A stretch of 64,000 nt of DNA. Source: Opitutia bacterium. GTDB lineage: Bacteria; Verrucomicrobiota; Verrucomicrobiia; Opitutales; Seribacteraceae. The notes below the pieces were generated by a model. The model was given only the letters and a program-made list of their open reading frames with translations. It searched no databases and was not told the origin of the DNA. Within the stretch, counting starts at the first letter, position 1. The number at the start of each line of letters is the position of its first letter. Below, piece after piece: positions 16,828-34,108 of this stretch. The stretch lies in contig NZKY01000028.1 in the NCBI GenBank assembly GCA_002694035.1, positions 659 through 64,658 on the forward strand, written 5' to 3'. A program made the position numbers and the translations under genes.

Positions 16828-18063
16828 TTATGTTGTGGGTAGATTAGCTAATCTTTTTTCGCTCTCAGCGGCCCATTTCGTACCATCATAAAAAATTTTA
16901 ACTTGTTTGTAGACATTTTTCGCAGCCTCATTGAGTTCCAATTTTTCATAGGCATCGCCGGCCATCATGAGGGACTCGGGTAACCAATCAAGACCAACTC
17001 TAGCACTAACAATTCCCTCGGTAACTTCGAGAACGGATTGTCTGTAAAATTCGGCTGCTTTTACACTGTCACCAGCTTGTTCAAATTGTCTCGCATATTG
17101 AACGCGCAACAGAGCTCGAATTAATTTATATAAAGAATATTCATTGGTTTGCCGAGCAGGAGGACTTTGATCTATTTTCTTAACTGTTTGAATAGCCGTG
17201 CTAAAAATCTTTCTTGCAGCTTCACCGTAGCGTGCATCCTTGGCAGCTGCCCTAGAGTAAGTTTCATATAATTTGATGTAACAATACACAGGCCAAATCT
17301 CGACAATTTTTGCGTATGGACTGCCAATCGATTTGTTTACAATAGGGCCAAGCCGTGCATATTCAGATATAGCTTCGTTATAAAGTCCTTTAATTCTCAA
17401 AGAATCAGCTAATTTTAAATAAGAGGCATGATCAGCACTGTTATTTCGAATAGTTACTTTTTGAAGAAGGGCTCTGGCGATCTTTGCAGATTTTGAATTT
17501 GCCTGAATCATTTTACTAGCAAGACCCAAAGAAGCTTCAGAAAAGTCCCTGTATCCGAAGCTGTCTAGTTTATTTAAATTCAGGCGAGATAAAATATAAA
17601 AGGCTTCATCAAATTGCTCCATTTCAATGAGGGCATTGACATAGATTAAACAGTTATCATGTACGGCAAAATATTTCTGGGGAATTTCCAAATACAAAAG
17701 TGCTTTGTAAATCATGGGGCGTAACGACGGTAAAAATTTAACATCATACTGTTCATTTGAAAATGATTTCAAAATTTTGATAGAATCTTCAGGCCAATTA
17801 AAAACAAATCCCTTAATATTTTGTTTTTCCAGTCCACGCAGTTCTAACTGCATTCTACCAGCACCGTCCATCTGTGCATATATGATTCCCCTCTGGCCAT
17901 CAACCCCAAGCAAACTTCCTGGCTTTCCTGCGTTACCCACATAAATTTTTACTGGAAGTGGACCGGAATGAATTTTAAAATAATCCTTGTTTGTTTGTCC
18001 ATAAAGGGAGCAGGAAAAACTCAAAAATAGACCGAAAAACAAATTTATCGTGTAATACCTCAT
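16828..18063 (-). CDS. Secreted TPR-like helical repeat protein
   Basis: Signal peptide; helical repeats (ADSLRIKGLYNEAISEY, LMMAGDAYEKLELNEAAKNVYKQVKIFY). Confidence 0.7.
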   Translation of the reverse strand: MRYYTINLFFGLFLSFSCSLYGQTNKDYFKIHSGPLPVKIYVGNAGKPGSLLGVDGQRGIIYAQMDGAGRMQLELRGLEKQNIKGFVFNWPEDSIKILKSFSNEQYDVKFLPSLRPMIYKALLYLEIPQKYFAVHDNCLIYVNALIEMEQFDEAFYILSRLNLNKLDSFGYRDFSEASLGLASKMIQANSKSAKIARALLQKVTIRNNSADHASYLKLADSLRIKGLYNEAISEYARLGPIVNKSIGSPYAKIVEIWPVYCYIKLYETYSRAAAKDARYGEAARKIFSTAIQTVKKIDQSPPARQTNEYSLYKLIRALLRVQYARQFEQAGDSVKAAEFYRQSVLEVTEGIVSARVGLDWLPESLMMAGDAYEKLELNEAAKNVYKQVKIFYDGTKWAAESEKRLANLPTT

Positions 18064-20228
18064 TATTTTAAGAATTTACGTTGCCAATCAACATACTGTT
18101 TTTCGACTTTTGTTATTTGATCAGACTGACCACTCTGTTCATAGCAACGGATTGCCTGCTCGTATGATTTAGAAGCCCATTTTGAGGCACTTGGAAAATT
18201 CAGTGTGGTATCCAAATAATAGTAAGCTGCTCCTGCATAGTCTCGAATTGCTCTTTTACACTCGCCCATCATGAAAGAAGACTGTGCACGTTGCTCCAGA
18301 GTAGCATCAGTATCACTCTTCACTTCAGTAAAAGAAGACACAGCACGGTCATAAAGACTACTATCCTTGGATGCCTGCCCCACTTCATACAAAGACTCGC
18401 CTAGCCTAATTCTTGCATCGTTTGCGCTGTCATGCCATGACGAATTTGCCAATGCGGATTCAAAGTAATCCACTGCCTGCTGGTAGCTTCTTTCCTGCTG
18501 CTTTGCCTGACCGAGAATATAATTTGCATCAAAAAGAAATTCACCCCCCGTTTCGCCAAAAAGATCTACTAGCCTTTCCATAGCCGCAATTGCATCCTCT
18601 GTAGAATTTTGAGCAAGAAGCTTATTGGCCATCCAAACCAAGACTCCCGGACTAGCCGCAGGAAAATCACTACGTTGCGGGTTATAGCTTCCACCCGCCT
18701 TTGATCCAACCCGATCCAGAGTTGCCCTCATTCTAAGTTCAAGTGTTTTACTACCCGAATTCTTTGCCTGATTAAGAAGATTTGCAAATGCTACCTGGGG
18801 AGACAAATCAGAGGGAAATCCATTCTGAAGATTTTTATATTTCTTTAGATATCCCTTAAACTTTTCCATATGAGACGGGCTGGAAAAAATAGCACCCCTT
18901 GATTTTACCACATCGCTGTAAATATCTTGATCCATTCCCTCGTAATTAGCAGACAAGAAAGGAAGCAGTTTTTTTCGATCCCCAATTATTTCCTCAACTG
19001 TTCCGGAAATGGTTTCCTCAATACCTTTTCGGTCTCGATATGTAAAAGTAACCGACTGACTTGGGTTCTGTAGTTTTTCTAGAAGATCAAGAGAGCGACC
19101 ATAAAGTTTATTATACTCATCATATTTTTCAGTATACTTATTTAAAATTCCATCTACCCCGACATTGTTTGGATCATTACCATATTTCTCAATATCCTTG
19201 TAATACAGATTGAGCATATCCGATGGTCTCCCAAGCATTTCACTAGCAAAACCAATTTTCTCAGTAGCTTCCGAAATACGGGCTTCATTACTTTCAGAAA
19301 ACTTCTCCGAATATGATTTGAACAAACTTTCCATATTCGAATAATAAACGAAAGAAGCTACATCATATAATTCACCATAATCGAGAGACTTATCTCCATT
19401 AAGATCGAATTCACTAAGGCTTTTATCTGCGTTTAAACCGATAGAGTTATATTCAGAAGACTGTAGCACTTCATCCTTATTTTTATCAAAGCTAAGGTAA
19501 TGGTCAACAACACCTTCCGGGTTATCGGCAACTCTTTCAAGAAGACCTCCTTCATTAAATGTTGCATCCGTTATCAATCTCATCTCCTGAGATTTTTCTC
19601 TTACAAAATTATAGTTTTTTTGGGCACTTTCAATCTGATCGAATGTTGGTTGTTCATCCGGTTTTACATCACTAATCGCAAGATCTCCTAAACTTAAATA
19701 AGCTTCCGCCACCATTTTATCATCCGGGAATTTAGTCACATATTCCTCAAAAAGACGAATGGCGTTTGGATTGTCTTGTGAACCCTGGTATGCAACTGCC
19801 AGTCTAAACATAGCATCCTTGTAATATTCTTCATCAGGGAAATGTCTCGCTTTCCCGCCGCCACTCCATTTTTCATTTATTGATTCCTGACCTGTCGAAA
19901 TAGTCTTACCTCCTCCCGCCTTATCAGTAATTTTCCATGTGGATCCGTTAAACCACATGAAAAAACCATCACCATTTGCATACACAGGCTTTCCATTTTT
20001 TTCTTCACCGGATGGAAGATAAACCCCATTGGGATCGGGTAATTCTTTAGGTTCAGGCTCAGGTTCAGGCTCAGGTTTTTCCTCAACAACTTTTTCAGGT
20101 TGCTCAACAGGTGTTTGAGTCTCCTTGTCGGCATTTGTTGTCTCACTGGTTGAAATTTCTTCTTCTCCTCCACATGAAAAGAAAAGAAAAACAGCAAGCT
20201 GTACGAGTGTAGAAAGAAAAATTCTCAT
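18063..20228 (-). CDS. TPR lipoprotein with Pro/Glu linker and EF-hand-like pair
   Basis: Start ATG 20228 behind a GGGGGAAG purine tract; LAVFLFFSC lipobox-like; KPEPEPEP linker; TPR-like units (AIRLFEEYVTKFPDDKMVAEAYLSLGD, ANYILGQAKQQERSYQQAVDYF, SSFMMGECKR). Confidence 0.75.
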   Translation of the reverse strand: MRIFLSTLVQLAVFLFFSCGGEEEISTSETTNADKETQTPVEQPEKVVEEKPEPEPEPEPKELPDPNGVYLPSGEEKNGKPVYANGDGFFMWFNGSTWKITDKAGGGKTISTGQESINEKWSGGGKARHFPDEEYYKDAMFRLAVAYQGSQDNPNAIRLFEEYVTKFPDDKMVAEAYLSLGDLAISDVKPDEQPTFDQIESAQKNYNFVREKSQEMRLITDATFNEGGLLERVADNPEGVVDHYLSFDKNKDEVLQSSEYNSIGLNADKSLSEFDLNGDKSLDYGELYDVASFVYYSNMESLFKSYSEKFSESNEARISEATEKIGFASEMLGRPSDMLNLYYKDIEKYGNDPNNVGVDGILNKYTEKYDEYNKLYGRSLDLLEKLQNPSQSVTFTYRDRKGIEETISGTVEEIIGDRKKLLPFLSANYEGMDQDIYSDVVKSRGAIFSSPSHMEKFKGYLKKYKNLQNGFPSDLSPQVAFANLLNQAKNSGSKTLELRMRATLDRVGSKAGGSYNPQRSDFPAASPGVLVWMANKLLAQNSTEDAIAAMERLVDLFGETGGEFLFDANYILGQAKQQERSYQQAVDYFESALANSSWHDSANDARIRLGESLYEVGQASKDSSLYDRAVSSFTEVKSDTDATLEQRAQSSFMMGECKRAIRDYAGAAYYYLDTTLNFPSASKWASKSYEQAIRCYEQSGQSDQITKVEKQYVDWQRKFLK
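20050..20077. repeat. In-frame 12-nt tandem repeat (GGTTCAGGCTCA)2 encoding a PEPEPEP linker
   Basis: Direct reading of 20050-20073, plus a partial third unit. Confidence 0.7.
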
Positions 20229-20232
20229 TTGA

Positions 20233-22005
20233 TTAATCTTCCCCCCTTTCCTGCAAATCACCTTCCTCAGGTACTCCACCTAGAGGCAAACCCTCAATAT
20301 TGACTCCAACAACAGCACCTAAAAGTGGCTTTGCCTCATCGAACTTACCAGTTGCGAGTAAAGCCAATCCGCTCATGTAATGTGCGGTCGGCATGGATGG
20401 ACTTTTAAAAAATGCTTTATTGTTAACATATCCATTGGCACGATTCATTACACCATTTTCAAAACCAGCAAATTTTTCCAAAAGACCATTAAAGTTTTTG
20501 CGCTTAAAATAAACGGATCCCATCATTCCGACGAAATCCTTAGCATACTTATGTTCAGGCATTACATTAATAAAATCATTACAAAGAGAAAAAAATCGTT
20601 CATAATACTCCGCAGACTTAGTTTTTGACTTTTCAGCACGATCCCGTTCAGTTGTTCCCAATTCATTTTGGAGGCTGACTGCAATTTGATTTAAAGTTTC
20701 AGCTTCCTGTCTGTAAGCATTAGCCATAATAAATGTGACATCAGCACGGAATTTAGTCCATTTTTTGTTTGCAAGATATTTTTCTCCGAGTTCGATCGAT
20801 TTCTCACGGTATTTAACTGTGTTAGCAGAAGCAAATGCTGCATAAATGAAATTCTCAACATTTTCATGCTTAGGAAAATCGTTATAAAGCCAGTAAAATC
20901 CCCAAAAAGATTCCCAGTCACGTTTGGTCAATTGAAAATTATCTGCTTTTCGCCATCTCAGAACGGTGGTAAATGGAGGCGTATCCATTGCCAATTTCAA
21001 CTGACCTTTTGAACTGGTTAACTTCATAGCAATTGTATTGGACTTTTCTTTTAAAATTTCCAACCGTCGCTTCGGCATAGTGCTACCCTGTAAGGCGATA
21101 ATTTGCTCGTATTGAGAAAGTTCAGTTTGCAACTGTTTTTGCCTCTCTTTGTAAAAAGCAACAATCTCCTCGGTCGTCATTGTTAAAGCGTAAAAAAGAG
21201 ACGCTTCCACATGCCTTCCCGCATCTTTTAGTTGTGCAGCTCCTTGCATGAGGTTAACATTTAATCTTAAATCATATCTAGCCGGTGTGTCACCGGAGAG
21301 CCTTGGTAATAAGGGAAAAACTTCATCAATTCTTTTGGTCTGAACAAACATTTCAGTTAGACATGATACAGCATAAGCAGAACGATCTTCATCTTTTGCT
21401 AGGTCTGCATACTTCAAAAGTTCACGGAATGAAGGTTCACCTTTTACCCAATCCTGCTCGATATGATAACATTGAGCCCGCCCAAAATACAAATTCATCA
21501 ACTCGGACCTCTTTAAAATTTGTTTTTTGTAAGGTTTGGCTGAATCAAGTAAAAGTTCAATAACTCTAGCCGCATCTTTCCATTCATGAAGGGCACGTAA
21601 GCAATCTGTTCTCTTTTGTAAAGCCATGACAGCTTTAGGGTCATTTGGAAATTTCTCAGCGAAAAAACCGAAGGCACTTGATGCCTTTCCTAAAAAATCT
21701 TGGTTTCCCGTTTTAGCAAAACTTTGCAAATATCCAACACCACGAACGAAACCGAATTGTTGGAGAATTTTTTCCACTTCGGGATCTTCTTCATCCTCAA
21801 AACGAACTTCTAACTCGTCAAGTAAAGGGGAAGCTCCGGCAAAATCTCCCTTACCAATCAAAGCCTGAGCTTCCGAGATTACCTGCCTCAACGGCATGTC
21901 GGCAGGACTCTGTCCATGGCAAATTGTTGAGGAGAGAAATAAACTTAAAAAAAGCACCAAAACAGGTACCAACGAATATGATTTAAAAGGGTTTCTTCGG
22001 GGCAT
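20233..22005 (-). CDS. Secreted TPR-like helical repeat protein
   Basis: Signal peptide; EAQALIGKGDFAGA, FAEKFPNDPKA, YFGRAQCYHIEQDW, HYMSGLALLATGKFDEAK repeats. Confidence 0.72.
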   Translation of the reverse strand: MPRRNPFKSYSLVPVLVLFLSLFLSSTICHGQSPADMPLRQVISEAQALIGKGDFAGASPLLDELEVRFEDEEDPEVEKILQQFGFVRGVGYLQSFAKTGNQDFLGKASSAFGFFAEKFPNDPKAVMALQKRTDCLRALHEWKDAARVIELLLDSAKPYKKQILKRSELMNLYFGRAQCYHIEQDWVKGEPSFRELLKYADLAKDEDRSAYAVSCLTEMFVQTKRIDEVFPLLPRLSGDTPARYDLRLNVNLMQGAAQLKDAGRHVEASLFYALTMTTEEIVAFYKERQKQLQTELSQYEQIIALQGSTMPKRRLEILKEKSNTIAMKLTSSKGQLKLAMDTPPFTTVLRWRKADNFQLTKRDWESFWGFYWLYNDFPKHENVENFIYAAFASANTVKYREKSIELGEKYLANKKWTKFRADVTFIMANAYRQEAETLNQIAVSLQNELGTTERDRAEKSKTKSAEYYERFFSLCNDFINVMPEHKYAKDFVGMMGSVYFKRKNFNGLLEKFAGFENGVMNRANGYVNNKAFFKSPSMPTAHYMSGLALLATGKFDEAKPLLGAVVGVNIEGLPLGGVPEEGDLQERGED

Positions 22006-22081: not shown

Positions 22082-23083
22082 TTAAAAATCAATACAGCAA
22101 GGACATTTGAGAACCCAATGATTTTTATTGAATTGTTCCCATTTAGGTTCACTCAATAAACTTTCCTCATATTTGTCAGCACAAACTCGATGGCCGTAAG
22201 CACAGCCCGCAGGTGGATTAATGGGAGATGGGATATCTCCTGGGATTATAATTTTCTCCCGATCAACACTCGGGTCAGGTATGGGAATCGCTGAAATTAA
22301 AGCCTTGGTATAAGCATGCAAAGGATTTACAAAAACTTCCTGAGCTGGGCCCATCTCGACAATCTTTCCAAGATACATTACGGCAATTACATCAGACACA
22401 TGTCGAACCACTGCCAAGTCATGAGCAATCAACAAATAGGAAAGCCCAAGAATTTCTTGTAATTCCATCAGAAGATTAAGGACCTGACTTTGTACAGACA
22501 CATCAAGTGCAGATACCGGTTCATCCAAAACGAGTAGTTCAGGCTCAAGAGCGAGGGCACGGGCAATTCCGATTCGCTGACGCTGCCCTCCTGAAAACTC
22601 AAAAGGATATCTTTTAACTGAACTTTCAGGAAGACCCACTTTTTCAAGTAGTTCTTCTACCTTAATATGCCTTTCATTCTTGGCGCCAATATTATGAATA
22701 TCTAAAGGCTCCCGCACAATCGAACCAACCGTCATCCTCGTATTGAGAGACTCAGCGGGGTCCTGAAAAACCATTTGTACGGATTTACAAAAATCTTTTT
22801 TTCCATGTGGGTCGTCCGAAGCATATTCCTTGAAAATAATCTTTCCACTTGTCGGTTTGACCAAACGGACGATTGACTTTGCCAATGTGGATTTGCCACA
22901 GCCTGACTCACCTACCAAACCAAGTGTCTCTCCCTTTTTGAGAGAAAAACTTACTCCATCGACTGCCTTACAAGCACCAATTGCTTTTCTAAAAACACCT
23001 CCACGTACCGGAAAATGCACCTTTACATCTGTTAATCGTAAAAACTCTTTATCTTTGTTCATCAACAAGTACACACAGGACAT
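22082..23083 (-). CDS. oppF: Oligopeptide ABC transporter ATP-binding protein (OppF/AppF-like)
   Basis: [33 protein letters not shown], and oligo_HPY tail NPLHAYTKALISAIP. Confidence 0.9.
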   Translation of the reverse strand: MSCVYLLMNKDKEFLRLTDVKVHFPVRGGVFRKAIGACKAVDGVSFSLKKGETLGLVGESGCGKSTLAKSIVRLVKPTSGKIIFKEYASDDPHGKKDFCKSVQMVFQDPAESLNTRMTVGSIVREPLDIHNIGAKNERHIKVEELLEKVGLPESSVKRYPFEFSGGQRQRIGIARALALEPELLVLDEPVSALDVSVQSQVLNLLMELQEILGLSYLLIAHDLAVVRHVSDVIAVMYLGKIVEMGPAQEVFVNPLHAYTKALISAIPIPDPSVDREKIIIPGDIPSPINPPAGCAYGHRVCADKYEESLLSEPKWEQFNKNHWVLKCPCCIDF

Positions 23084-24057
23084 GCCTCAACCCAATGACC
23101 ACTTGAAAGTTCCTTAAAGTCGGGTCGAATAGATAACTGTTCTTGGGTATGATCGCGCCCGCTTCTAGGTCCATAACGGCAACCTTGATTCAGATCCAAC
23201 AGACTGGGAACAATTCCTTCTATTGTTTTGAGTTTCGCTTTTGGGCTCCCCTTAAGCTTAGGTATCGAATCCAATAAGTCTTGGGTGTATGCATGGTGAG
23301 GTGATGCAAATATCTTCTCTGTAGATCCCCTCTCCACCACCCTGCCTGCATACATTACACAAACCTCATCACAATTTTCAGCGATAACGCCCAAATCATG
23401 AGTTATAAGCAAAATAGAGCATCCATTTTCCTTCTGCAAATTATGAAGCAAATCTAAAATCTGTGCTTGGACCGTAACATCCAATGCAGTTGTAGGTTCA
23501 TCAGCTATGATTATTTTTGGCTTACAGGCTAAGGCCATCGCTATAACTACTCTTTGTCTCATCCCTCCAGACAACTGATGTGGGTATTCATGCATACGAT
23601 TCTCGGGGGAAGGAATCCCAACAGACTCGAGCATCCCAACGGATTCAGACCATGCTTGATGGTCGTCCATTTCCTGATGTAAATGAAATACCTCAGTCAA
23701 CTGATTACCAATTTTTTGTACCGGATTTAGGGCGTTCATAGGCTCCTGAAAAATCATTCCGATCTCATTGCCTCTTATCCCCTGCATTTCCTCTGTACCT
23801 AAATCAAGAAGGTTTTTACCCTGAAAAATAATACTACCGTTTGTAATCATACTCATCGGTTGAGGTAAAAGTCTCATTATGGAATAAGCAGTAACACTCT
23901 TTCCACATCCAGATTCACCAACTACACCAACCGTTTGTCCGCGATTTATTCCAAAGCTTACTTTATCCAGTGCCTCCACTTCACCATCATCAGTTGAAAA
24001 TCGAACCGAAAGATCCGTGATCTCAAGTAATGGAGCGATCTGGTCTTTTTCGTTCAT
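23062..24057 (-). CDS. oppD: Oligopeptide ABC transporter ATP-binding protein (OppD/AppD-like)
   Basis: [34 protein letters not shown]. Confidence 0.9.
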   Translation of the reverse strand: MNEKDQIAPLLEITDLSVRFSTDDGEVEALDKVSFGINRGQTVGVVGESGCGKSVTAYSIMRLLPQPMSMITNGSIIFQGKNLLDLGTEEMQGIRGNEIGMIFQEPMNALNPVQKIGNQLTEVFHLHQEMDDHQAWSESVGMLESVGIPSPENRMHEYPHQLSGGMRQRVVIAMALACKPKIIIADEPTTALDVTVQAQILDLLHNLQKENGCSILLITHDLGVIAENCDEVCVMYAGRVVERGSTEKIFASPHHAYTQDLLDSIPKLKGSPKAKLKTIEGIVPSLLDLNQGCRYGPRSGRDHTQEQLSIRPDFKELSSGHWVEACPVCTC

Positions 24058-24073
24058 TTACACAAGTTACAAT

Positions 24074-26275
24074 TTAATTGTCTTTGTACTTTTCATAAAT
24101 CCGAATTGTAGGATTATCTTTAAGCACTTCACCCTTTTCCATAGCTTGTAAGATCTTATCTTTCTCAGTCTCATCGATCCAGAAAACCTGAAATTCTTCG
24201 TAATCCCGAGTTTCCTTGGGACCCCAGTCTTCAGGAAATTTAATCCAGTTCCAATGACCTATCCTAAGCCATGGCTTCTTCCATGCAGGAACCCAAACTG
24301 CATGATCATGAATCATTTGACTTAATTGATGGGCCATTTCAGTAATTTTGCCCAAATCTTCCTCGTCCCTATATTTATTAATCAGATGATCAATCTCACG
24401 AACGGCAGTTTGAGTAAAATTATTGGTACTTACCTTTGTTGTCAGATTAGACTTTAGCGAACCATCTTCATTAAACTTTGAATCTCCAATCTCCTGATAA
24501 GCATTATCAGAATGGTAAGGCTCCCAAAACCTTGGAAAAAGCTCAACAAATGAATTAAATGCAGAAAAAATTACTTGATGATTTTTTTCATTTGCCGCTT
24601 TCCATGCAGCTGTCGGTTCCAAAACTTTTAGCTTTAACTCCAAACCGGCTTTTTTCGCCTGTTCTTTAAGAACCACAAGGACATCCTCAAAATGCCTGTA
24701 ACCTGTGAGTAGTTCAATAGAAAGTCTCTGCCCTTTAGAATTTACCAATATACCATCTCCTCCTCTTTCGCTGAAACCGCCTTTTGCAAAATATGCAACA
24801 GCTTTTTCAATTGAGAACTCTCTTGCTTTTATTGTTGGATGGGAACGTCCACCGTAACCGTCAGCCACCGTGTTCATACGAACAAAATCACCTCGAAAAA
24901 TTTTCTCGAGAACCAAGTCAAAATTCATTGCATGATGAAACCCCTTGCGAAGATTCAAATCATTAAGGGGTGGCTTTTGTGAGTTGATTCTTAATGCGTA
25001 TGATGGTGGTGGCGTTTGATTAAAAAATGTAACTTTTGAAAGATAACCATTTTGAACCAGCTTGTGATTATCTGGTAGTTTATCATACCAAAATTCTGTC
25101 TTTGCCAAGCCGAACATATCGACACCACCTTTAAGAAATACCTCAAAGGCTTTGTTGTAGTCCCTAACAACACTTACTCTTATTTTTTCAGGATTGAAGC
25201 GATAACGGAAAAATCTTTTTTGATCCGCCCACCAATCTTTTTGTCTTATTAAAGTCACTGACTTACCTTTATCCACATTTTCAGCCAATGCCACATAAGC
25301 TCCTGTGGTAGGCTCTGGATTCCATTGGTACTTACTCAGAAATTCACCATCCAATTCTTTATAAAAATGCTCAGGTTTTGCTCTTATAGCTACCCTTTCA
25401 ACGACATCCGGCTTTGCTTTGTAAAAGGTAATTGAAAAGGTTTCTTGATCATAAAGGGTTACCTTCTGAAATTTGTCTTTTCCGTAAAAATCATTGTACC
25501 AAGGCGCTTGAATATGCTTACTCCTCATGAAATAAAAAAAGAAAAAGAAATCCGATACTTTTACTTTTTTGCCGTCACTGTATTGTGCATCAGGATCGAG
25601 CCGGAAATAAACCGTTCTGCCATCTTTTCCTACAGCCCAAGAGTTCGCAAGGCCTGGATAATATCCATCCGAATTCGGGTGAGGATGAACCAAACTTATC
25701 ACATTATAATCGAGAAGATAACTACGAAAAGCTCCATTTGCATCCGGACCAATCGTCCTTAGTGTGCGGGGAAAATCTCGCATGTAGACTTCCCAGGTTC
25801 CACCTCTTCTTGCGTTCTGAGATGCAAATTCCTGTTCCCCACTCCCATCCTGCCATTTCAAATCCTCAGGAAGACTATCTGCAGATAAAATCGAAAAACA
25901 ATCAGGATGCTTTTGATAAAATTCCAAAACATCCTCCGAACAATGAGTAAGTAAAGGATGCACTTTCCCTTCTTTAACAATGTGACCTTCAATCGACTGG
26001 GTATTGTTTGAATCTTTTGAAAAATCAAAATTAACCGGGTTATTGGACCCTTTTAATTGACGGGCAAATTCGATGGCGAATTCCCTGCCAAATTCTCTAG
26101 CCAACTCCCGAGCAAACTCACGATCGATTCCATCAACTCCTGCCTGTTCCTTGTTGTCCTGATTAACATTTTCACGGGGTGGTTTGAGTTTGGGATTCTC
26201 ACAACTGGAAAAGAAAATAACTGCAGTGATAACGATAAAAGTATTCAAGTGCTTTAATTTTTTCATTTTATTCAT
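24074..26275 (-). CDS. ABC substrate-binding lipoprotein, family 5 (YejA-like)
   Basis: Start ATG 26275 or 26266 (MNKMKKLKHLNTFIVITAVIFFSSC lipobox); ARRGGT...FPRTLRTIGP, YPGLANSW, DWWADQKRFFRYRFN, LRKGFHHAMNFD. Confidence 0.85.
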   Translation of the reverse strand: MNKMKKLKHLNTFIVITAVIFFSSCENPKLKPPRENVNQDNKEQAGVDGIDREFARELAREFGREFAIEFARQLKGSNNPVNFDFSKDSNNTQSIEGHIVKEGKVHPLLTHCSEDVLEFYQKHPDCFSILSADSLPEDLKWQDGSGEQEFASQNARRGGTWEVYMRDFPRTLRTIGPDANGAFRSYLLDYNVISLVHPHPNSDGYYPGLANSWAVGKDGRTVYFRLDPDAQYSDGKKVKVSDFFFFFYFMRSKHIQAPWYNDFYGKDKFQKVTLYDQETFSITFYKAKPDVVERVAIRAKPEHFYKELDGEFLSKYQWNPEPTTGAYVALAENVDKGKSVTLIRQKDWWADQKRFFRYRFNPEKIRVSVVRDYNKAFEVFLKGGVDMFGLAKTEFWYDKLPDNHKLVQNGYLSKVTFFNQTPPPSYALRINSQKPPLNDLNLRKGFHHAMNFDLVLEKIFRGDFVRMNTVADGYGGRSHPTIKAREFSIEKAVAYFAKGGFSERGGDGILVNSKGQRLSIELLTGYRHFEDVLVVLKEQAKKAGLELKLKVLEPTAAWKAANEKNHQVIFSAFNSFVELFPRFWEPYHSDNAYQEIGDSKFNEDGSLKSNLTTKVSTNNFTQTAVREIDHLINKYRDEEDLGKITEMAHQLSQMIHDHAVWVPAWKKPWLRIGHWNWIKFPEDWGPKETRDYEEFQVFWIDETEKDKILQAMEKGEVLKDNPTIRIYEKYKDN

Positions 26276-27338
26276 AAGTTGAAAATTTTTTGGGATCGAA
26301 AGCCTCACGAACAGCTTCCCCAATAAAAGTGACAAGGGTGAGAGTAAAAACCAATGCAGTAACCGTGGAAATAACAATCCATGGAGCGGTCCTTAGATTG
26401 CTTACCCCTTGCTTTAAAAGTTCTCCCCAACTAGGTGTTGGAGGCGGTAATCCATAGCCCAAAAAATCCAGTGCCGTAATCGAAGAAATTGCCGCAGCTA
26501 TGGTAAACGGGGCGAAAGTCACAAGGGTTGAAACAACATTGGGAAGTAAATGCTTAAATATAATCCTCACAGGACTGGCACCAATCACTCTCGCAGCTGC
26601 GATGTAATCCCTCGATTTTTCCTTATACACAGAAGCACGAATATAATAAGTCATTCCGGTCCAAGAAAACATAACCATTATTATTAAAAGAGAAGAAACC
26701 TGCCAACCAACTCCCCACCCCCCGGGCATTACTGAAACTAAAATAATGACCATATAAAGGAATGGAACATTTGCCCAGATTTCGACGAATCGCAGGCCAA
26801 GCATATCACTTTTTCCACCTAAATACCCCATCAAACTACCCGCAGCGATAGCGATCAAATAAGTTAATATAAGATAGCCAATAGCGAAAGTCATTGCTAT
26901 GCGAAAGCCATAAAGCAATCGTGCCAACACATCTCTTTCCGTTTTATCTGTTCCACAAAAATGACCTTTATTCAAATTAGGTGGAGAAAAACCTGTCGCT
27001 TCCTCATCACTGTAATCCATTTCGTAAGGTCCGAAAGGAACCATTGGCATTATAACCCAGTTGCCTGAACCATCATGATCAAATTTCCTTTTGAGCTCTC
27101 GGTAATCGACTTCGTATTCATAGTCCAAACCAAAATCTTTACCACTCATCTGTTCACCATATATGGGGAAAAAAATTTCATTATTGTATGAAACTAGTAG
27201 TGCCCTGTTGTTAACGAAGAGTTCACCAGCCAAACTTAAAAGGTAAAGGGAAACCAAAATCAAAAACGACCAATAACCCCTCTTGATCGAACGAAAGCGG
27301 GCAAGCTTCTTACGGGTAAGTGGATTGATTTGAAACAT
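26268..27338 (-). CDS. ABC transporter permease (YejE/OppC-like)
   Basis: KKLARFRSIKRGYWSF, GTDKTERDVLARLLYGFR, YIAAARVIGAS (EAA loop), GLPPPTPSWGELL. Confidence 0.9.
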   Translation of the reverse strand: MFQINPLTRKKLARFRSIKRGYWSFLILVSLYLLSLAGELFVNNRALLVSYNNEIFFPIYGEQMSGKDFGLDYEYEVDYRELKRKFDHDGSGNWVIMPMVPFGPYEMDYSDEEATGFSPPNLNKGHFCGTDKTERDVLARLLYGFRIAMTFAIGYLILTYLIAIAAGSLMGYLGGKSDMLGLRFVEIWANVPFLYMVIILVSVMPGGWGVGWQVSSLLIIMVMFSWTGMTYYIRASVYKEKSRDYIAAARVIGASPVRIIFKHLLPNVVSTLVTFAPFTIAAAISSITALDFLGYGLPPPTPSWGELLKQGVSNLRTAPWIVISTVTALVFTLTLVTFIGEAVREAFDPKKFSTYE

Positions 27339-27344
27339 TCTCAA

Positions 27345-28769
27345 TTACTCAAATCTCACTCGTGGATCAACCAAAGCGACTAACGCATCCGAAAGAATAT
27401 TACCCAAAAGCATAAGGGTAGCTGATAGTGTGAGGATTCCCATTACTACAGGATAATCTCGGTCTATTACAGAATTAAAGCCAAGCAAGCCGAATCCATC
27501 GATATCAAAAATCGTTTCGATTAGAAAAGAACCGGTCACAAATAGCGTAATTTGATGACCCACATTTGTGGCAATTGGCACGAGTGAATTTCTTAAGGCA
27601 TGCTTGCGAACCGCAATTTTAAATGAAACTCCTTTGGCCATAGCTGTACGGACATAATCTGCCGATAAGTTATCCATCAAATGATTTTTCATAAGCATGG
27701 TAACAAAAGCAAAACCACCAATTAAATAACAGCACAAAGGCTGAAATGTATGAAGTATGAGGTCTGCAAATTTTCCCCAAGCAGTCAATTGATCAAAGTC
27801 CTCACTGACTAATCCCCCCATTGGTAAAAGGTCCAAACTCACAGATAAAAACAGAAGCAGAAGAGAACCAAGAGCGTACCCCGGCACGGCATAACCAACA
27901 AAAATTAAAATTGATGTCAGATCATCCGAAAGTTGATTATGACGAACCGCTTTAAACACGCCCAGCGGGATACAAATTATGTAGGTTATAATAAAGGTAA
28001 GAATACCAAAATAAGTGGAGACAGGCAGACGTTCAGAAATAACCTGCAAAACAGACTCACCATATCTTGTTGACTGACCAAAATTTCCCTGAAGGACTCC
28101 TTCATAACGGGTCATAAAAAGTTCGGCTATAGGTGCCGATTTTTGAACTTCATTACCTTCTTCTCTCATTCTAACTGTCCAATTTCCAAGAAGTTCAGCA
28201 TCGTTAAGAAGTTTCACTTCACCTTGATCATTCCTACGCAAGTGAATTCTTTCTCTTGCACCCTCAACTAAAGAATCGATTTGACCGGCCTCAAGGGCAT
28301 CGATCTCTCCATCCTGATTTCGATCAATTTTATCAAATTTCACATATCTCGATATTTTTTTAGGTATCTCGCCTCGCTGAACATATCCATCTCCATTCCA
28401 ATCTAGTTCAGCGAGTTGAAAATCTGGAATTCTTACCCTCTCTGAAATTTCGAACTCAAAATTTGAAAAGCGGATTTGCCGAAATTCGGTTTCCCTAGGC
28501 ATAACGCCAAGCCAAATTAAGTATGCCTCCCAATGTGGCTTATCAAATCCATATAATCGCTTCATTTGCTCCATTTGATCCTGTGAAAGCGATTGGTCTG
28601 AGCCCATTCCTTGACCTCCTCCTCCATCCTGCGAAACTTGCTGCATTTGCATCATCGCCTGCTCCAAAGGACCTCCGGGAGCCAACCTGGTAATAGCGAA
28701 AACCAAGACACTAATACCAAAAAGGGTTGGAGGAATTAAAAGCAGGCGTCGAAGAAAGTAATCTCGCAT
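27345..28769 (-). CDS. ABC transporter permease (YejB/OppB-like) with inserted EF-hand pair
   Basis: YFLRRLLLIPPTLFGI, LAPGGPLEQA, YVRTAMAKGVS, DRDYPVVMG...DPRVRFE. The enlarged first loop contains DWNGDGYVQRGE and DRNQDGEIDALE. Confidence 0.92.
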   Translation of the reverse strand: MRDYFLRRLLLIPPTLFGISVLVFAITRLAPGGPLEQAMMQMQQVSQDGGGGQGMGSDQSLSQDQMEQMKRLYGFDKPHWEAYLIWLGVMPRETEFRQIRFSNFEFEISERVRIPDFQLAELDWNGDGYVQRGEIPKKISRYVKFDKIDRNQDGEIDALEAGQIDSLVEGARERIHLRRNDQGEVKLLNDAELLGNWTVRMREEGNEVQKSAPIAELFMTRYEGVLQGNFGQSTRYGESVLQVISERLPVSTYFGILTFIITYIICIPLGVFKAVRHNQLSDDLTSILIFVGYAVPGYALGSLLLLFLSVSLDLLPMGGLVSEDFDQLTAWGKFADLILHTFQPLCCYLIGGFAFVTMLMKNHLMDNLSADYVRTAMAKGVSFKIAVRKHALRNSLVPIATNVGHQITLFVTGSFLIETIFDIDGFGLLGFNSVIDRDYPVVMGILTLSATLMLLGNILSDALVALVDPRVRFE

Positions 28770-28914: not shown

Positions 28915-30559
28915 ATGGATTAAATCGAAGAGAAACTTCTTCAATCTTTGTTTAACTGGACCGTGCTTTGTTTTCTTTGGCTCATGCTCCAGCCCCAGCA
29001 ATGTGGAAAAAGCAATAGACGAAAAAATTCTCCATTTTGGATTGGGTTCAGAGCCCCAATACCTAGATCCCCATCTTGCAAACAGCGTTTCGGCTCACAA
29101 TGTGATCATTGCCCTTATAGAAGGGCTCGTTAGCGAAGACCCAGAAACCCTCAAACCCATCCCAGGAGTTGCTGAAAAATGGGAAGTTTCAGAAGATGGA
29201 TTGGTTTACACATTTCATCTACGAAAAAATGCCAAATGGAGTAACGGTGATCCTGTTACTGCTCAGGATTTCGTGTTCTCTTATAAAAGAATTTTAAACC
29301 CAGAACTCGCATCTCAATATGCGAGCATGCTCCACGGGCTCAAAAATGCCAGAAAATATCATGAAGAAGGGATCCCTTGGGACGAAGCCAAAGTGGGAGC
29401 TATTGCAATTGACAAACATACACTCCAATTGACTCTTGAAAATCCCACGCCTTATTTCCTTGAACTCCTAAATCACTACAGTTGGTTTCCAGCTCACCCT
29501 CCAACCATTAAGAAATTCGATGCTTTTGGAAAACAGGGGACGGCTTGGACCCGCCCAGGAAATTATATTGGAAATGGGCCTTTCGTTCTCTCTGATCATA
29601 AAGTGAATTCAGTGATCGAAGTGAAAAAAAATCCTCTCTACTGGGATTCAAATACCGTCTCATTAGAAGGAATTCGTTTCTATCCGATTGAAAGTGCGGA
29701 CACTGAAGAACGAGCTTTTCGTTCAGGTTTTCTTCACCTTACTCAAACCGTCTCTCCTGATCGTATAGATTTCCTTAAAACAAATCATCCAAATTTAATT
29801 CATTTTGAATCGTATTTGGGAACCTACTTCTACCGATTTAATGTTGAGGAACCGCCCTTTGATGATGTGCGAGTTCGCCTAGCTTTCAATTTGGCAACCG
29901 ATCGTCAAGCCATCGTTGAAAAAGTGACCAAAGGCGGTCAGCTACCAGCCCTTTGTTTTACGCCACCTGGTACAGGTGGTTTTTCTCCTACGTCAAGATT
30001 CCGATTTGATCCTCAAAAAGCGCAATCTTTGATTCAGGAATATCTGGAAGAAAAAGGTTTGAAATCTCTCCCAAAAATTGAATTGAAGTATAACACTTCA
30101 GAAGGACATAAAAAAGTTGCTGAAGCTCTTCAAGGAATGTGGAAGAGCCATTTGGGAGCTGAGATTCAACTTCTAAATATGGAGTGGAAAGTTTTTCTTT
30201 CCACCATCGCCAAACGAGACTTTTCCCTCGCCCGTGCCGGATGGATTGGGGACTATGTTGACGCAAACACTTTTCTCCATATGTGGAGAACAGGCGACGG
30301 CCACAATAACACTGGATGGTCAAACAGCCGATATGATGAACTCCTTGAACTTGCAGCTCAGGAATCTGATACCAAAAAAAGATTTTCTTATTTTGAAGAG
30401 TGCGAAAAATTAATAGCTGAAAATGCACCTATCCTTCCCATCTATTTTTATGTCCATGTGACTCTAAGAAGCCCTACTGTTAAAGGATGGTACCCCACCC
30501 TTTTAGACCACCATCCTTATAAATATGTCCGCCTTGAAAAATCGGAAGAGAATAACTGA
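28915..30559 (+). CDS. oppA: Peptide ABC transporter substrate-binding lipoprotein; 5' end anomalous (ATG 28915 is one base out of frame with the signal peptide)
   Basis: GSEPQYLDPH, PGVAEKWEVSEDGLVYTFHLR, WSNGDPVTAQDF, GNGPF, RAGWIGDY. Upstream of GTG 29003 the frame reads IKSKRNFFNLCLTGPCFVFFGSC with no in-frame ATG/GTG/TTG. Confidence 0.88.
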
Positions 30560-31476
30560 TGGTTAAATTTATTCTTGTCCGAATTCTCCAAGCTATTCCA
30601 ACGCTTTTCCTGATTGCAACGCTTACTTTTTTCATGACTAGAATGGCACCTGGTGGACCGTTTGACTCCGAAAAAAATATCCCTGACGAAATCAAGGAGA
30701 AGCTTGAAGCACACTTCGGACTGGACAAACCACTACATGAACAATTCATCCTGTACATAAATAATTTATTGCAAGGAGATTTAGGTCCATCCTTTAAGTA
30801 CATGGGATGGGATGTTTCGGAACTTATCGCAAAGGCATTTCCCGTTTCTGCTCAACTTGGTATTCTTTCCTTATGCATTGCTCTACTAATGGGACTCCCA
30901 GCAGGTATCATTGCAGCGCTTCGTAAAAATTCGTCTTATGATTATTTTCTGATGATTTCAGCAATGCTTGGAATCTGTCTTCCCACTTTTGTCCTTGGCC
31001 CTCTATTGATTTTAATTTTTTCATCTTGGCTAGGCTGGCTTCCCCCACTCGGATGGTATTCCTTTTCAGACATGATCTTGCCCTCATTGACTCTTGGCCT
31101 TTTCTATGCTGCCTACATTGCTAGGCTTACCAGGGCTGGCATGCTTGAAACTCTTAATCAAGACTACATTCGTACAGCACGAGCAAAAGGAGCTTCACCC
31201 ATACGGGTCGTTCTATGCCATGCTCTTAAGGGTGGTCTTCTTCCTGTGGTTACTTTTCTTGGGCCTGCCTTTGCCGGATTAATTAGCGGTTCTTTTATTA
31301 TAGAAAGTATTTTTTTTATACCAGGCTTGGGAAGGTTTTTTGTAACCGCTGCCTTCAATCGTGATTATACAATGGTTCTGGGTACTGTACTTTTTTATGC
31401 CTGTCTAATCATAATTCTAAATCTTGTGGTCGATATTATCCAGGCCAGCCTTGACCCAAAATCAAGAGGGAGATGA
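30559..31476 (+). CDS. oppB: Oligopeptide ABC permease
   Basis: MAPGGPFDSEK, GDLGPSFKY, YIRTARAKGA, NRDYTMVLG. Confidence 0.93.
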   Translation: MVKFILVRILQAIPTLFLIATLTFFMTRMAPGGPFDSEKNIPDEIKEKLEAHFGLDKPLHEQFILYINNLLQGDLGPSFKYMGWDVSELIAKAFPVSAQLGILSLCIALLMGLPAGIIAALRKNSSYDYFLMISAMLGICLPTFVLGPLLILIFSSWLGWLPPLGWYSFSDMILPSLTLGLFYAAYIARLTRAGMLETLNQDYIRTARAKGASPIRVVLCHALKGGLLPVVTFLGPAFAGLISGSFIIESIFFIPGLGRFFVTAAFNRDYTMVLGTVLFYACLIIILNLVVDIIQASLDPKSRGR

Positions 31477-32369
31477 GTATCGAAAACACCAAAGTTCAAA
31501 ATTTGATTTCATCATCTACTAAAAGCTCATCACTTTGGCGAGATGCATGGATTAGACTTCGGGCAAATCGCCTCGCCGCCCTTAGTCTTTTCTTTTTTGT
31601 CCTTGTCTCAATTCTTACAATTATTGGTCCTGAAATTATCTCTACCAGTTACGATGAACAGGATCTCAACAATACTTTTGCAGCACCTGGATCGACTCAT
31701 CTTTTTGGAACAGATAATTTAGGAAGAGATCTGTTCGCCCGCGTGCTTCACGGCGGAAGAATTTCTCTAGCAGTTGGATTTCTGGCAACTGCAGTTTCTT
31801 TGATCATTGGAGTAGCCTATGGGATGACCTCTGGATATCTTGGAGGCAAAATGGATGCCTTAATGATGAGGATTGTAGATATTCTTTATTCGTTACCCTT
31901 TACTATTTTTGTGATTCTTTTGATGGTCCTTTTTGGTCGAAATTTTGTTCTGCTCTTTATTGCTATTGGTGCAGTGGAATGGCTTACCATGGCACGAATT
32001 ACCCGAGGGCAAACCCTGAGTCTCAAACAGGCAGAATTTATAGAGTCGGCTCGGGCACTTGGATATTCCCACAAACGTATACTCTTTCGTCATATTCTCC
32101 CAAACTTGATCGGACCGGTTATTGTTTATGCAACACTAACCGTTCCTGCGGTGATGCTACTTGAAGCGGTTCTAAGCTTTTTAGGGCTGGGAGTACAAGC
32201 ACCTATGAGCTCATGGGGTAGTCTGATTAAGGAAGGATCCGAAAAAATGGATATTGCACCCTGGCTGATATTCTTCCCTGGTCTTTTCTTTTCCCTAACT
32301 CTACTCGCACTTAATTTTCTCGGAGATGGGTTGCGGGATGCACTTGATCCAAAATCTGCAAAAGATTAA
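31473..32369 (+). CDS. oppC: Oligopeptide ABC permease
   Basis: LWRDAWIRLRANR, FGTDNLGRD, FIESARALG, NFLGDGLRDALDPK. Confidence 0.93.
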   Translation: MSIENTKVQNLISSSTKSSSLWRDAWIRLRANRLAALSLFFFVLVSILTIIGPEIISTSYDEQDLNNTFAAPGSTHLFGTDNLGRDLFARVLHGGRISLAVGFLATAVSLIIGVAYGMTSGYLGGKMDALMMRIVDILYSLPFTIFVILLMVLFGRNFVLLFIAIGAVEWLTMARITRGQTLSLKQAEFIESARALGYSHKRILFRHILPNLIGPVIVYATLTVPAVMLLEAVLSFLGLGVQAPMSSWGSLIKEGSEKMDIAPWLIFFPGLFFSLTLLALNFLGDGLRDALDPKSAKD

Positions 32370-34108
32370 TGAACTTTCTAGAGATCAAAAATCTTAAGAC
32401 TTTTTTCCATACCCGCTCGGGGACAGTACGGGCGGTTGACGACATCTCGCTAACCATTCGAAAAGGTGAAATTGTAGGTATTGTTGGAGAATCAGGATCT
32501 GGTAAGTCAGTTACTTGTCATACTATGCTAGGACTTCTTCCCCAGCCTCCAGCCCGGATCGAAGGAGGAAGTATACACTTTCATGGAGATGACCTTGTGA
32601 ACTTACCCCATTCTGCTCTAAGGGCTATACGAGGAAAGCGAATTTCTATGGTCTTTCAGGATCCTATGAGCTGCCTCAATCCATTCATGACAATTCTCGA
32701 GCAGGTAGCGGAACCGCTCATTATTCATGACAACTTATCTCTTGAAGAGGCGGAGAAACAGGCTATTGAAATGATGGAAAAAGTGGGGATTCGAGACGCA
32801 GAGAAAAGAGCTCGTTCCTATCCCCATGAATTTTCCGGAGGTATGCGCCAGCGCGTTATGATTGCCATGGCTTTGGTCACCAAACCAGATCTCTTGCTGG
32901 CAGATGAACCAACCACCGCACTAGATGTAACCGTTCAGGCAAGAATCCTGAAAATTTTAAGATCCCTCCGTGAGGAATTGGATGTTTCCGTTCTTTTTAT
33001 CACTCACGATTTAGGGGTAGTTGCAGAGATTGCGGATCGTATTGTGGTTATGTATCGAGGAAAAGTCGTTGAGCAGGGAGAAGTTAAAGAAATTTTTTCC
33101 AATCCAAAACATCCTTATGTGAAAGGGCTTCTTGCATGCAGGCCCACACTGGACTGCAAATATGGGACTCTTCCCACAGTTGATGACTTCTTGGAAACAA
33201 TTGAGCATGAGAACGGTGCTATTGAAATTCGTGAAAAGAAAAATATTGAAAACACCCTTCAAAAATTAGTTGAAACGAAAAAAAACTCTGAAAAAGAACA
33301 ATCTGATCCTTTAGTTGAAGTACAAAATCTCACCGTTCGTTTTCGTTCCTCTAAAGGATTCATAGGGGAAAAAACAGAGGATGTACTTGCCGTGGATGGT
33401 ATTGATTTAACCATTCAGAAAGGAAAGACGCTCGGCCTTGTGGGCGAATCAGGTTGTGGTAAAACTTCTACAGGACGAGCCATTCTCCACTTGATCAGAC
33501 CGACAAGTGGAGAAATTTTATATGAGGGAAAATCACTTGGGAAACTCCCTGCGGAAAACCTAATTGAATATCGGAAAAAGATGCAAATTATCTTTCAGGA
33601 TCCATATGCTTCTCTTAATCCGAGACTTACAATTGAGCAAACACTGACTGAGCCCATGCAGGTACATAATATCGACAATAATAATTCAAGTCGACGAGAA
33701 CGGGTTGTAAGCATTCTTGAAGAAGTTGGGCTTTCCTCAGATCATCTTCTACGATACCCACATGAATTTTCCGGAGGGCAAAGACAGCGTATCTGCGTAG
33801 CCAGAGCACTTGCGGTTGAGCCTGAATTTATCGTTTGCGATGAATGTGTTTCAGCAATGGATGTGTCCATTCAAGCACAAGTCCTCAATCTCTTACAAGA
33901 ACTGCAAAGAAAAAGGCAGCTCACATATTTATTTATTTCTCATGACCTCTCAGTGGTAAAATTTATTTCAGATGATGTGGCCGTGATGCAAGCTGGAAAG
34001 ATTATCGAATTTGGAAAAGCTTCAGATGTCTATACTCATCCAAAAGAAAACTACACCAGAGACTTAATTGATGCAATTCCATCCCCTTACAACTTAGTTA
34101 AGGATTAG
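32369..34108 (+). CDS. Peptide ABC transporter fused double ATPase (YejF/GsiA-like)
   Basis: Two NBDs: GESGSGKS...FSGGMRQR and GESGCGKT...FSGGQRQR. Confidence 0.93.

Follow-up and report, generated by a model that had tools for sequence, protein, structure and literature searches.

The stretch of DNA analyzed here, called the window below, comprises 64,000 nucleotides from an Opitutia bacterium (GenBank assembly GCA_002694035.1, contig NZKY01000028.1, positions 659 to 64,658 of the forward strand), whose assembly has 2.88 Mb and a G+C content of 38.6%. At positions 27345..28769 of the minus strand lies an open reading frame (ORF) whose translation is a YejB-like permease of 474 residues, belonging to an ATP-binding cassette (ABC) importer. 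The subject of this work is a pair of EF-hand-type loops in this permease, together with a helix in the substrate-binding protein encoded in the same operon. The permease contains a BPD_transp_1 domain (Pfam PF00528, residues 267-472, 8.6e-32). The best NCBIfam family was YejB PRK15133, of the microcin C permease subfamily, with 250.6 bits against a cut-off of 445; since the score stays under the cut-off, the protein is named YejB-like only. The label “microcin C transport system permease” assigned at JGI is automatic, and the weaker NCBIfam matches include nickel/opine-type Opp relatives. The sequence matches in the PDB were DppB (8z1v) and OppB (8z21). By sequence as well as by the fold of the AlphaFold model, the nearest solved structures were DppB and OppB of E. 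coli and the Opp/Dpp permeases of M. tuberculosis, and Foldseek with the permease model retrieved DppB 8z1y_A (E = 3.5e-14, TM-score 0.80 on the target). Residues 371-380 form the EAA coupling loop, DYVRTAMAKG, at the point where DppB has its “RTA” coupling helix. With its BPD_transp_1 core, its EAA loop and the six-helix DppB/OppB fold, the protein is a type I ABC importer permease of the Opp/Dpp/Yej group. The organism belongs to the marine Opitutales (Verrucomicrobiota), and many near-identical matches to the permease were found in Tara and other ocean metagenomes and assemblies.

The YejB-like gene heads a complete five-gene operon, all on the minus strand, for a peptide-type ABC importer with two permeases, a lipoprotein binding protein and two ATPases. 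It is followed by a YejE-like second permease (26268..27344, 358 residues; BPD_transp_1 at 1.2e-27 and PRK15021, microcin C ABC permease, at 7.3e-80), a family-5 substrate-binding lipoprotein (24074..26275, about 733 residues; SBP_bac_5 at 7.9e-44) and two ABC ATPase genes (23062-24057 and 22082-23083, 331 and 333 residues, respectively). As listed, the ORF of the binding protein begins at TTG 26377 and shares its first 110 nucleotides with the end of the YejE-like gene; the signal peptide and the relatives point to ATG 26275 as the real start, with an overlap of 8 nucleotides. The Pfam scan covered the 331-residue ATPase (ABC_tran 3.3e-29, oligo_HPY 4.1e-15), and the 333-residue one was identified from its Walker A and signature motifs.

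The two EF loops of the permease are DWNGDGYVQRGE (28368..28403, residues 123-134) and DRNQDGEIDALE (28290..28325, residues 149-160), both on the minus strand. Their starts are 26 residues apart, with a spacer of 14 residues, and the translation showed D1, N3, D5, G6, a hydrophobic residue at position 8 and E12 in both of them, just as an earlier reading of the window from its sequence only had described. In the canonical EF loop of 12 residues, positions 1, 3, 5 and 9 supply oxygen ligands, position 12 is a bidentate Glu, position 6 a Gly and position 8 a hydrophobic residue; both permease loops have this form. The same sequence-only reading had called the loops textbook, which held for the ligand positions but not throughout the consensus: PROSITE pattern PS00018 fails on the Trp at position 2 of loop 1 and on the Ala at position 13 of loop 2, and the curated thresholds of the Pfam models EF-hand_1/5/6/7 were not reached either. 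The Pfam EF-hand models matched loop 2 only (EF-hand_5 at residues 145-160) and none matched loop 1. EF-hand_5/6/1 were matched by all 12 of the aligned members of the insert that carries the loops.

In order to judge a chance origin, the pattern D.[DN].DG.h...E was searched over the whole 2.88-Mb genome and compared with shuffled proteins, pairs at most 45 residues apart being counted separately. Six ORFs contained the pattern, with 10 occurrences in total where the shuffles predicted 0.4, and pairs were present in four ORFs, where the shuffles predicted 0.0. A chance origin of the permease pair was ruled out by these genome-wide shuffles. A profile of the insert, searched against the PDB, matched lanmodulin (6mi5, 2.9e-6), Entamoeba calcium-binding proteins and further EF-hand proteins, and in each case the loop pair accounted for the match. 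Dockerin_1 (PF00404) remained below threshold in the window permease (13.7 against 22.9 bits), with weak matches in 4 of the 12 members.

The conservation of the loops was analyzed in 15 relatives at 75-88% identity and in a wider set reaching down to 56% overall (about 36-38% inside the insert). The ligand positions were invariant or nearly so in both sets, while the neighbouring positions varied. The lack of such conservation in orthologues had been named beforehand as what would speak against a metal site, and the opposite was found. Position by position, 72 distinct 38-residue segments from relatives were counted. Loop 1 retained D1 and W2 in all 72, D/N3 in 67, D5 in 68, and G6 and E12 in 66 each; loop 2 retained D1, D9 and E12 in 67 each, N3 in 66 and D5 in 65. 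Positions 4, 10 and 11 of the loops vary freely, and position 2 of loop 2 is variable (H/Q/T/R). As judged from these alignments, the pattern is that of a working metal site and the pair is under selection. Position 2 of an EF loop is not a metal ligand, and the invariant Trp2 of loop 1 suggests a contact surface. Binding of Ca2+ by the pair is likely from its sequence and its conservation.

The surroundings of the loops were analyzed in single-chain AlphaFold (AF2) models of the full permease and of the insert alone. The full model had a mean predicted local distance difference test (pLDDT) score of 81.8, with block means of about 78-86 over the insert. In this model the first transmembrane helix (TM1) spans residues 2-29 and the second (TM2) begins at residue 240. 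Directly after TM1 there is a segment resembling the scoop motif (28554..28670, minus strand, residues 34-72), which aligns with DppB residues 2-73 and is modelled as a helix (34-47), a disordered Gly-rich loop (47-60, pLDDT <50) and a second helix (63-72); a further helix at residues 79-87 corresponds to DppB alpha-3. Next comes a beta-rich insert (28104..28508, minus strand, residues 88-222), which is absent from E. coli YejB, DppB and OppB and is modelled with strands at residues 92-100, 107-113, 172-179, 185-187, 197-201 and 214-221. The better of the two stretches aligned to PRK15133 pairs profile positions 94-362 with residues 209-474. Since the match resumes only at residue 209 and the N-terminal 90 residues or so align to DppB, the extra length relative to E. 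coli YejB amounts to about 120-135 residues. The enlarged first loop that had been proposed for this YejB/OppB-like permease is real, and the EF-hand-type pair within it is genuine and conserved.

Beyond what the earlier reading had described, the pair turned out to be part of a smaller unit nested in the larger beta-rich insert. This cassette, IPDFQLAEL...SLVEG (28260..28430, minus strand, residues 114-170), comprises 57 residues and lies between insert strands 2 and 3. In the alignment it appears as a clean indel of roughly 50 residues relative to scaffold-only permeases, which have the beta insert without the EF region and were found in two genomes (G023 and G058) of the same and the neighbouring family. 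The clean indel thus identifies the EF pair as a cassette nested in the strand 2-3 hairpin of an inserted domain. Around the loops the model places short helices of 4-6 residues (119-122, 137-142, 145-148 and 158-161), shorter than canonical ones, and a two-residue bridge in each loop (residues 130-131 and 155-156), as in paired EF-hands. The model of the insert alone reproduced the elements of the full-length model. With the 128-residue insert, Foldseek retrieved no significant fold match in the PDB (best E = 0.29), only weak local matches of lanmodulin and calmodulin type.

Within the chain the loop region connects TM1 to TM2. The EAA coupling loop, whose side of the membrane must be that of the ATPases, is three helices further on. 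In the cryo-electron microscopy structures of DppBCDF the TM1-TM2 region is periplasmic, and the scoop motif (DppB residues 32-62) enters the cleft of DppA and affects ATPase activity (PMC12136057). The location between TM1 and TM2, the distance from the EAA loop and the homology to the periplasmic region of DppB and OppB place the EF pair, by prediction, in the periplasm and near the docking place of the binding protein.

The other new finding concerned the binding protein. This is a lipoprotein with a lipobox-like FFSSC whose Cys25 is kept as Cys in the relatives. Along the N-terminal part, about 25 linker residues lead to the helix DREFARELAREFGREFAIEFARQL, and a variable stretch of about 40 residues links the helix to the family-5 core. 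The helix (26054..26125, minus strand), which was recognized from translation and alignment as a conserved amphipathic element of the tether, is the proposed partner of the EF pair. Its alignment has the invariant residues D27, L34, A35, R36, F38, E41 and E45, flanked by variable, indel-rich linkers, and a conserved island of this kind is as expected for a binding motif, judging from the sequences. In a second family (f28) the helix takes the forms ...LARVFAQELAAELARQ and ...IAREMGREMGREMAQEL. With hydrophobic residues recurring at every fourth position, the helix reaches only a modest hydrophobic moment at 100 degrees (0.48-1.45) and is better described by a hydrophobic stripe than by a classical amphipathic moment. 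Most of the binding proteins that accompany EF-type permeases have Asp or Glu directly behind the lipid-modified Cys, and then a conserved motif, x-x-K-L-K-x-P. An Asp at position +2 retains lipoproteins of E. coli in the inner membrane, a rule that may or may not extend to Verrucomicrobiota.

The cassette and the helix were found together throughout. Among 301 genomes sampled across Opitutales, the N-terminal tether profile was matched over positions 1-144 in 14, and these were exactly the 14 genomes whose permease has the full insert with the cassette. Another 56 genomes matched the core only, from position 63 onward, and no genome was discordant. Five further metagenome-assembled genomes carry both the cassette and the helix. 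In G023 and G058 a cassette-free permease accompanies a same-lineage binding protein without the helix. These two are not sisters on the tree of the transmembrane core (approximately unbiased (AU) test, p = 0.0016, for a group named after the tree was seen), from which it follows that there were two or more changes of state, both genes being affected on each occasion.

Of the 14 carriers, 10 belong to the genus of the window (11 genomes sampled), one to another genus of the same family and three to the second family, f28. The f28 permeases carry DWDSDGFVKADE/DTNKDGRIDGWE and similar loops with the 26-residue spacing kept, and in one pairing the loops DWDQDGWLTRQE/DADKDGFVTADE go with the tether helix AREMGREMGREMAQEL. 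In the family of the window, each genome with a match has a single YejB-like gene (E <= 1e-40) in syntenic position, and the permease occurs in four forms: with the EF cassette (18 full-length matches in 41 genomes), with the scaffold only, with a different insert of similar size, and without insert (340-354 residues). The sequence type of the binding protein co-varies with the permease type across the family, and insert-free permeases accompany binding proteins without N-terminal extension. A second permease type, observed within the genus of the window (L021/L045 in G101; L022/L048 in G056 and G206), has a different beta-rich insert without EF loops. Its partner is a binding protein with a helical N-terminal extension of about 100 residues (FEEWYPQYNRY...KKLLERMQSR...).

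In a search of 1.84 billion representative proteins, homologue lengths ranged from about 320 to 790 residues owing to the TM1-TM2 loop, and among the best 150 homologues the EF pair was confined to the present clade. This loop is an insertion hot spot of the YejB-like clade, taking up beta domains, EF pairs, tandem Ca-type repeats and a lipoyl-like barrel. A distant YejB-like permease with 48% core identity (P0143, 617 residues) has in the same loop, at residues 165-290 approximately, about eight tandem units of 14-15 residues of the form EF-x-D-x-N-x-N-x-x-W-D-x-x-E; these have no Pfam match, and P0156 has two such units. Judging from the sequences, a Ca-type repeat would have been acquired independently at this site in P0143. 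In P0127 (552 residues) the same periplasmic loop holds a Biotin_lipoyl-like barrel (PF00364, 3e-11, residues 211-286), and most of the other large inserts of this loop, up to about 450 residues, had no Pfam match. A second insert of about 80 residues (PVQSVSVQAGSDRWSAPDHKLQNGDEVWF...) was observed in the next periplasmic loop, between TM3 and TM4, in P0123 (654 residues) and in L012, the 561-residue open frame of a permease from f28 genus g57 (G081).

Secreted proteins of other Opitutales, unrelated to the permease, were also found to carry similar short-spaced pairs, in which E-x-P follows loop 1 and an aromatic residue precedes loop 2 by four positions, so the cassette looks like a reused module. 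Moreover, in two f28 genomes (L013/L014 in G102 and G028) a divergent gene adjoining the EF-type permease encodes a secreted protein of 145-179 residues with three EF loops of the DKDGDGKLNEQE type and a Gly/Lys-rich tail. A homologue of this protein is encoded elsewhere in the genome of the window (contig C73).

A similarly spaced pair had also been noticed in a tetratricopeptide repeat (TPR) lipoprotein on the same strand of the window (18063..20279, minus strand), and it is indeed present: the EF-like loops DKNKDEVLQSSE and DLNGDKSLDYGE lie 27 residues apart, and their ligand positions are conserved in 14 orthologues (FDK[ND]x[DN]..L...E and D[LM]NxDK.[ILV]D[YF]GE), with Gly6 absent from both loops. 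The suggestion that the TPR and permease pairs form one calcium system did not stand. The TPR/ExbB/ExbD cluster adjoins the yej-like operon in every family member examined, whatever the permease type, and two genomes whose permease lacks the EF pair (G316 and G318) keep the pair of the TPR lipoprotein. A joint Ca2+ envelope system of the permease and TPR/ExbBD was rejected because the synteny and the TPR pair persist regardless of permease type. The two pairs are independent, and EF-type loops are a common feature of the exported proteins of this organism.

Taken with the predicted position of the pair, the co-occurrence suggests that the Ca2+-loaded EF pair may be a docking module for the tether helix of the binding protein, a reading that we hold tentatively and at somewhat less than an even chance. 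Seawater contains about 10 mM Ca2+, a nearly constant level with which the periplasm equilibrates by way of porins and which exceeds the dissociation constants typical of EF-hands by orders of magnitude. If the two loops bind Ca2+ as we propose, they would be permanently occupied. A permanently filled site fits a structural or docking role better than calcium-sensitive transport, and the Ca2+-sensitive import proposed by the sequence-only reading is unlikely as stated, since a periplasmic site at this concentration should stay filled. Rigidified by Ca2+, the pair would offer a docking site to the helix in the flexible N-terminal tether, and the membrane-anchored binding protein would thereby be kept beside its own translocator. 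Such docking could matter given that a second, ordinary Opp-type importer is encoded next door (29003-34108). That importer is divergent, lies on the plus strand adjoining the yej-like operon and encodes a 518-residue binding protein, insert-free permeases of 305 and 298 residues and a fused double ATPase of 579 residues; it provides a natural internal comparison. A wider form of the docking reading may be considered as well, namely that the EF pair captures the tether helix and that the variable TM1-TM2 inserts of the clade are, in general, receptors matched to lineage-specific extensions of the binding proteins; this is possible but doubtful.

Several points weigh against a docking role. The EF-hand_5 score is 20.7 bits for the whole protein and 25.2 for the isolated insert, against a gathering cut-off of 25.9, and Gly6 of loop 2 is kept in 51 of the 72 segments, K, N and D being among its replacements (in about 30% of the segments). 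The modelled helices are short and the insert has no significant domain match (best E = 0.29), so that the models do not demonstrate a calmodulin-like open cleft. As for the coupling with the helix, the number of independent contrasts is only one on well-supported branches or two on all branches, with which a sign test cannot reach significance; f28 comprises only five genomes. The choice of the G023 and G058 group with the tree already in view counts here too. Finally, the permease and the binding protein share an operon, and joint inheritance alone could give the co-occurrence.

The last point leads to an account in which Ca2+ only rigidifies an exposed beta domain or protects it from proteases, the pair has no partner and the helix has been co-inherited through the operon. 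The EF-like site in the galactose-binding protein of E. coli has a stabilizing role of this kind. The inferred periplasmic site in a high-Ca2+ habitat, the occurrence of EF loops on exported proteins of this genome (6 ORFs) and the small number of contrasts (one or two) would all agree with it. Nevertheless, we regard it as rather unlikely, given that the co-occurrence with the helix is perfect (14 of 14, with none discordant among the 301 genomes), that scaffold-only relatives persist, and by inference fold, without the cassette, so the EF pair would not be needed for the stability of the beta domain, and that the invariant Trp2 of loop 1, at a position that is not a metal ligand, points to a contact surface. 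Alternatively, the occupancy of the loops could follow external Ca2+ and gate the docking of the binding protein or the coupling to the ATPases. The pair does adjoin the scoop motif, which affects the ATPase activity of DppBCDF, and periplasm-facing EF-hand sensors exist, such as EfhP of P. aeruginosa (PMC9132961, PMC11559002). However, the relatives come from marine metagenomes, where high and near-constant Ca2+ would carry little signal, the operon has neither a regulator nor a Ca2+-related gene coupled to it, and the EF pair of the TPR lipoprotein is independent of permease type, all of which makes a sensor quite improbable.

A different metal was also considered, with the pair as a lanmodulin-like site for a lanthanide or another hard cation that would act as a sensor or would hand metal-peptide or opine-type substrates to the transporter. 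Lanmodulin 6mi5 was the best sequence match in the PDB (2.9e-6) and lanmodulins were also among the weak top Foldseek matches, Asp is conserved at position 9 of loop 2, the weaker NCBIfam matches include Opp relatives of the nickel/opine type, and the 14-residue spacer is nearer to the 12-13 residues of lanmodulin than to the usual 25 or so (PMC10232371). Against this, the permease has two hands where lanmodulin has four, it has no Pro at position 2, its spacing approximates the lanmodulin hallmark only, unrelated proteins secreted by Opitutales commonly carry short-spaced EF pairs, and the match itself is driven by the loop consensus and the spacing. Another metal is, on this evidence, very improbable. 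An identity as lanmodulin was rejected on the published hallmarks, which are four EF-hands, spacers of 12-13 residues and Pro at position 2 of the loop in at least one hand (PMC10232371): four hands and Pro2 are absent and the spacing is only approximate.

When compared with known systems, the permease resembles YejB (of YejABEF) and DppB/OppB (8z1v, 8z1y, 8z21, 8j5q, 8wd9) in its six-helix type I core, its BPD_transp_1 domain and its EAA loop, and it shares with the Yej, Dpp and Opp systems the operon with a second permease, a family-5 binding protein and ATPases, as well as the scoop-like helix-loop-helix after TM1. It differs from YejB, DppB and OppB in the 120-135 or so extra residues after alpha-3, which are beta-rich and contain the EF pair, and the system differs from Yej, Dpp and Opp in having as binding protein a lipoprotein with a long N-terminal tether. 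The loops themselves are like those of lanmodulin and of secreted EF-hand_5-type pairs, with 12-residue DxNxDG...E loops and a spacer of about 12-14 residues; the E-x-P after loop 1 and the aromatic residue four before loop 2 are shared with secreted Opitutales proteins such as DADGDGKISESEAPQQMVNQFARVDQNSDGFLDEAE. Unlike the secreted pairs, which occur in free proteins or terminal tails, the permease pair is nested in a domain of a polytopic permease, and unlike lanmodulin it has only two hands, a 14-residue spacer and Trp2 in loop 1.

A periplasmic EF-loop-type site on an ABC importer component is also found in the galactose-binding protein of E. coli (2gbp), where the accepted role of the Ca2+ site is stabilization and not signalling (PMC2233790). 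In that case the site is a single non-canonical loop on a soluble binding protein, unlike the pair in the permease. EfhP (PA4107) of Pseudomonas aeruginosa is membrane-anchored, has two EF-hands and has been reported to bind Ca2+ specifically (PMC9132961, PMC4053335). In contrast to the permease, it is a stand-alone signalling protein outside any transporter, in an organism that meets variable Ca2+. The proposed logic, by which a Ca2+-loaded EF-type pair offers a surface to a partner, would be that of calmodulin and its target helices or of dockerin and cohesin. The helices of the permease pair are, however, much shorter than those of calmodulin, and unlike dockerin-cohesin there is no cohesin-like partner and the dockerin score of the permease is under threshold. 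Literature searches retrieved no account of an ABC importer permease with EF-hands, whether of the Opp/Dpp/Yej type or any other. The view of the sequence-only reading that such permeases have no known EF-hand therefore held for the literature, but not entirely for databases, since precomputed Pfam annotation gives PF00528+PF13202 for two relatives of the permease. The permease family is known and so is the metal-binding module, and the arrangement itself is undescribed.

In the usual picture of ABC importers in Gram-negative bacteria, the periplasmic binding proteins diffuse freely. To our knowledge, the way in which a binding protein finds its own translocator has been explained only by the docking surfaces of its lobes and by the scoop motif. 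If the EF pair and the tether helix do touch, this would be a new assembly principle for ABC importers and, as far as we know, the first case in which a non-covalent, metal-dependent device couples a binding protein to the ABC translocator that it belongs to. Such a device would represent a third solution beside freely diffusing binding proteins and permease-fused binding domains, and an EF-hand outside the cytoplasm would be acting as a permanent Ca2+-dependent connector rather than as a switch. The modules of the TM1-TM2 loop in the YejB-like clade are many and mutually unrelated, and none of them has been characterized. Since the family is abundant in marine Opitutales, it bears on the uptake of peptides or muropeptides by a common group of marine heterotrophs.

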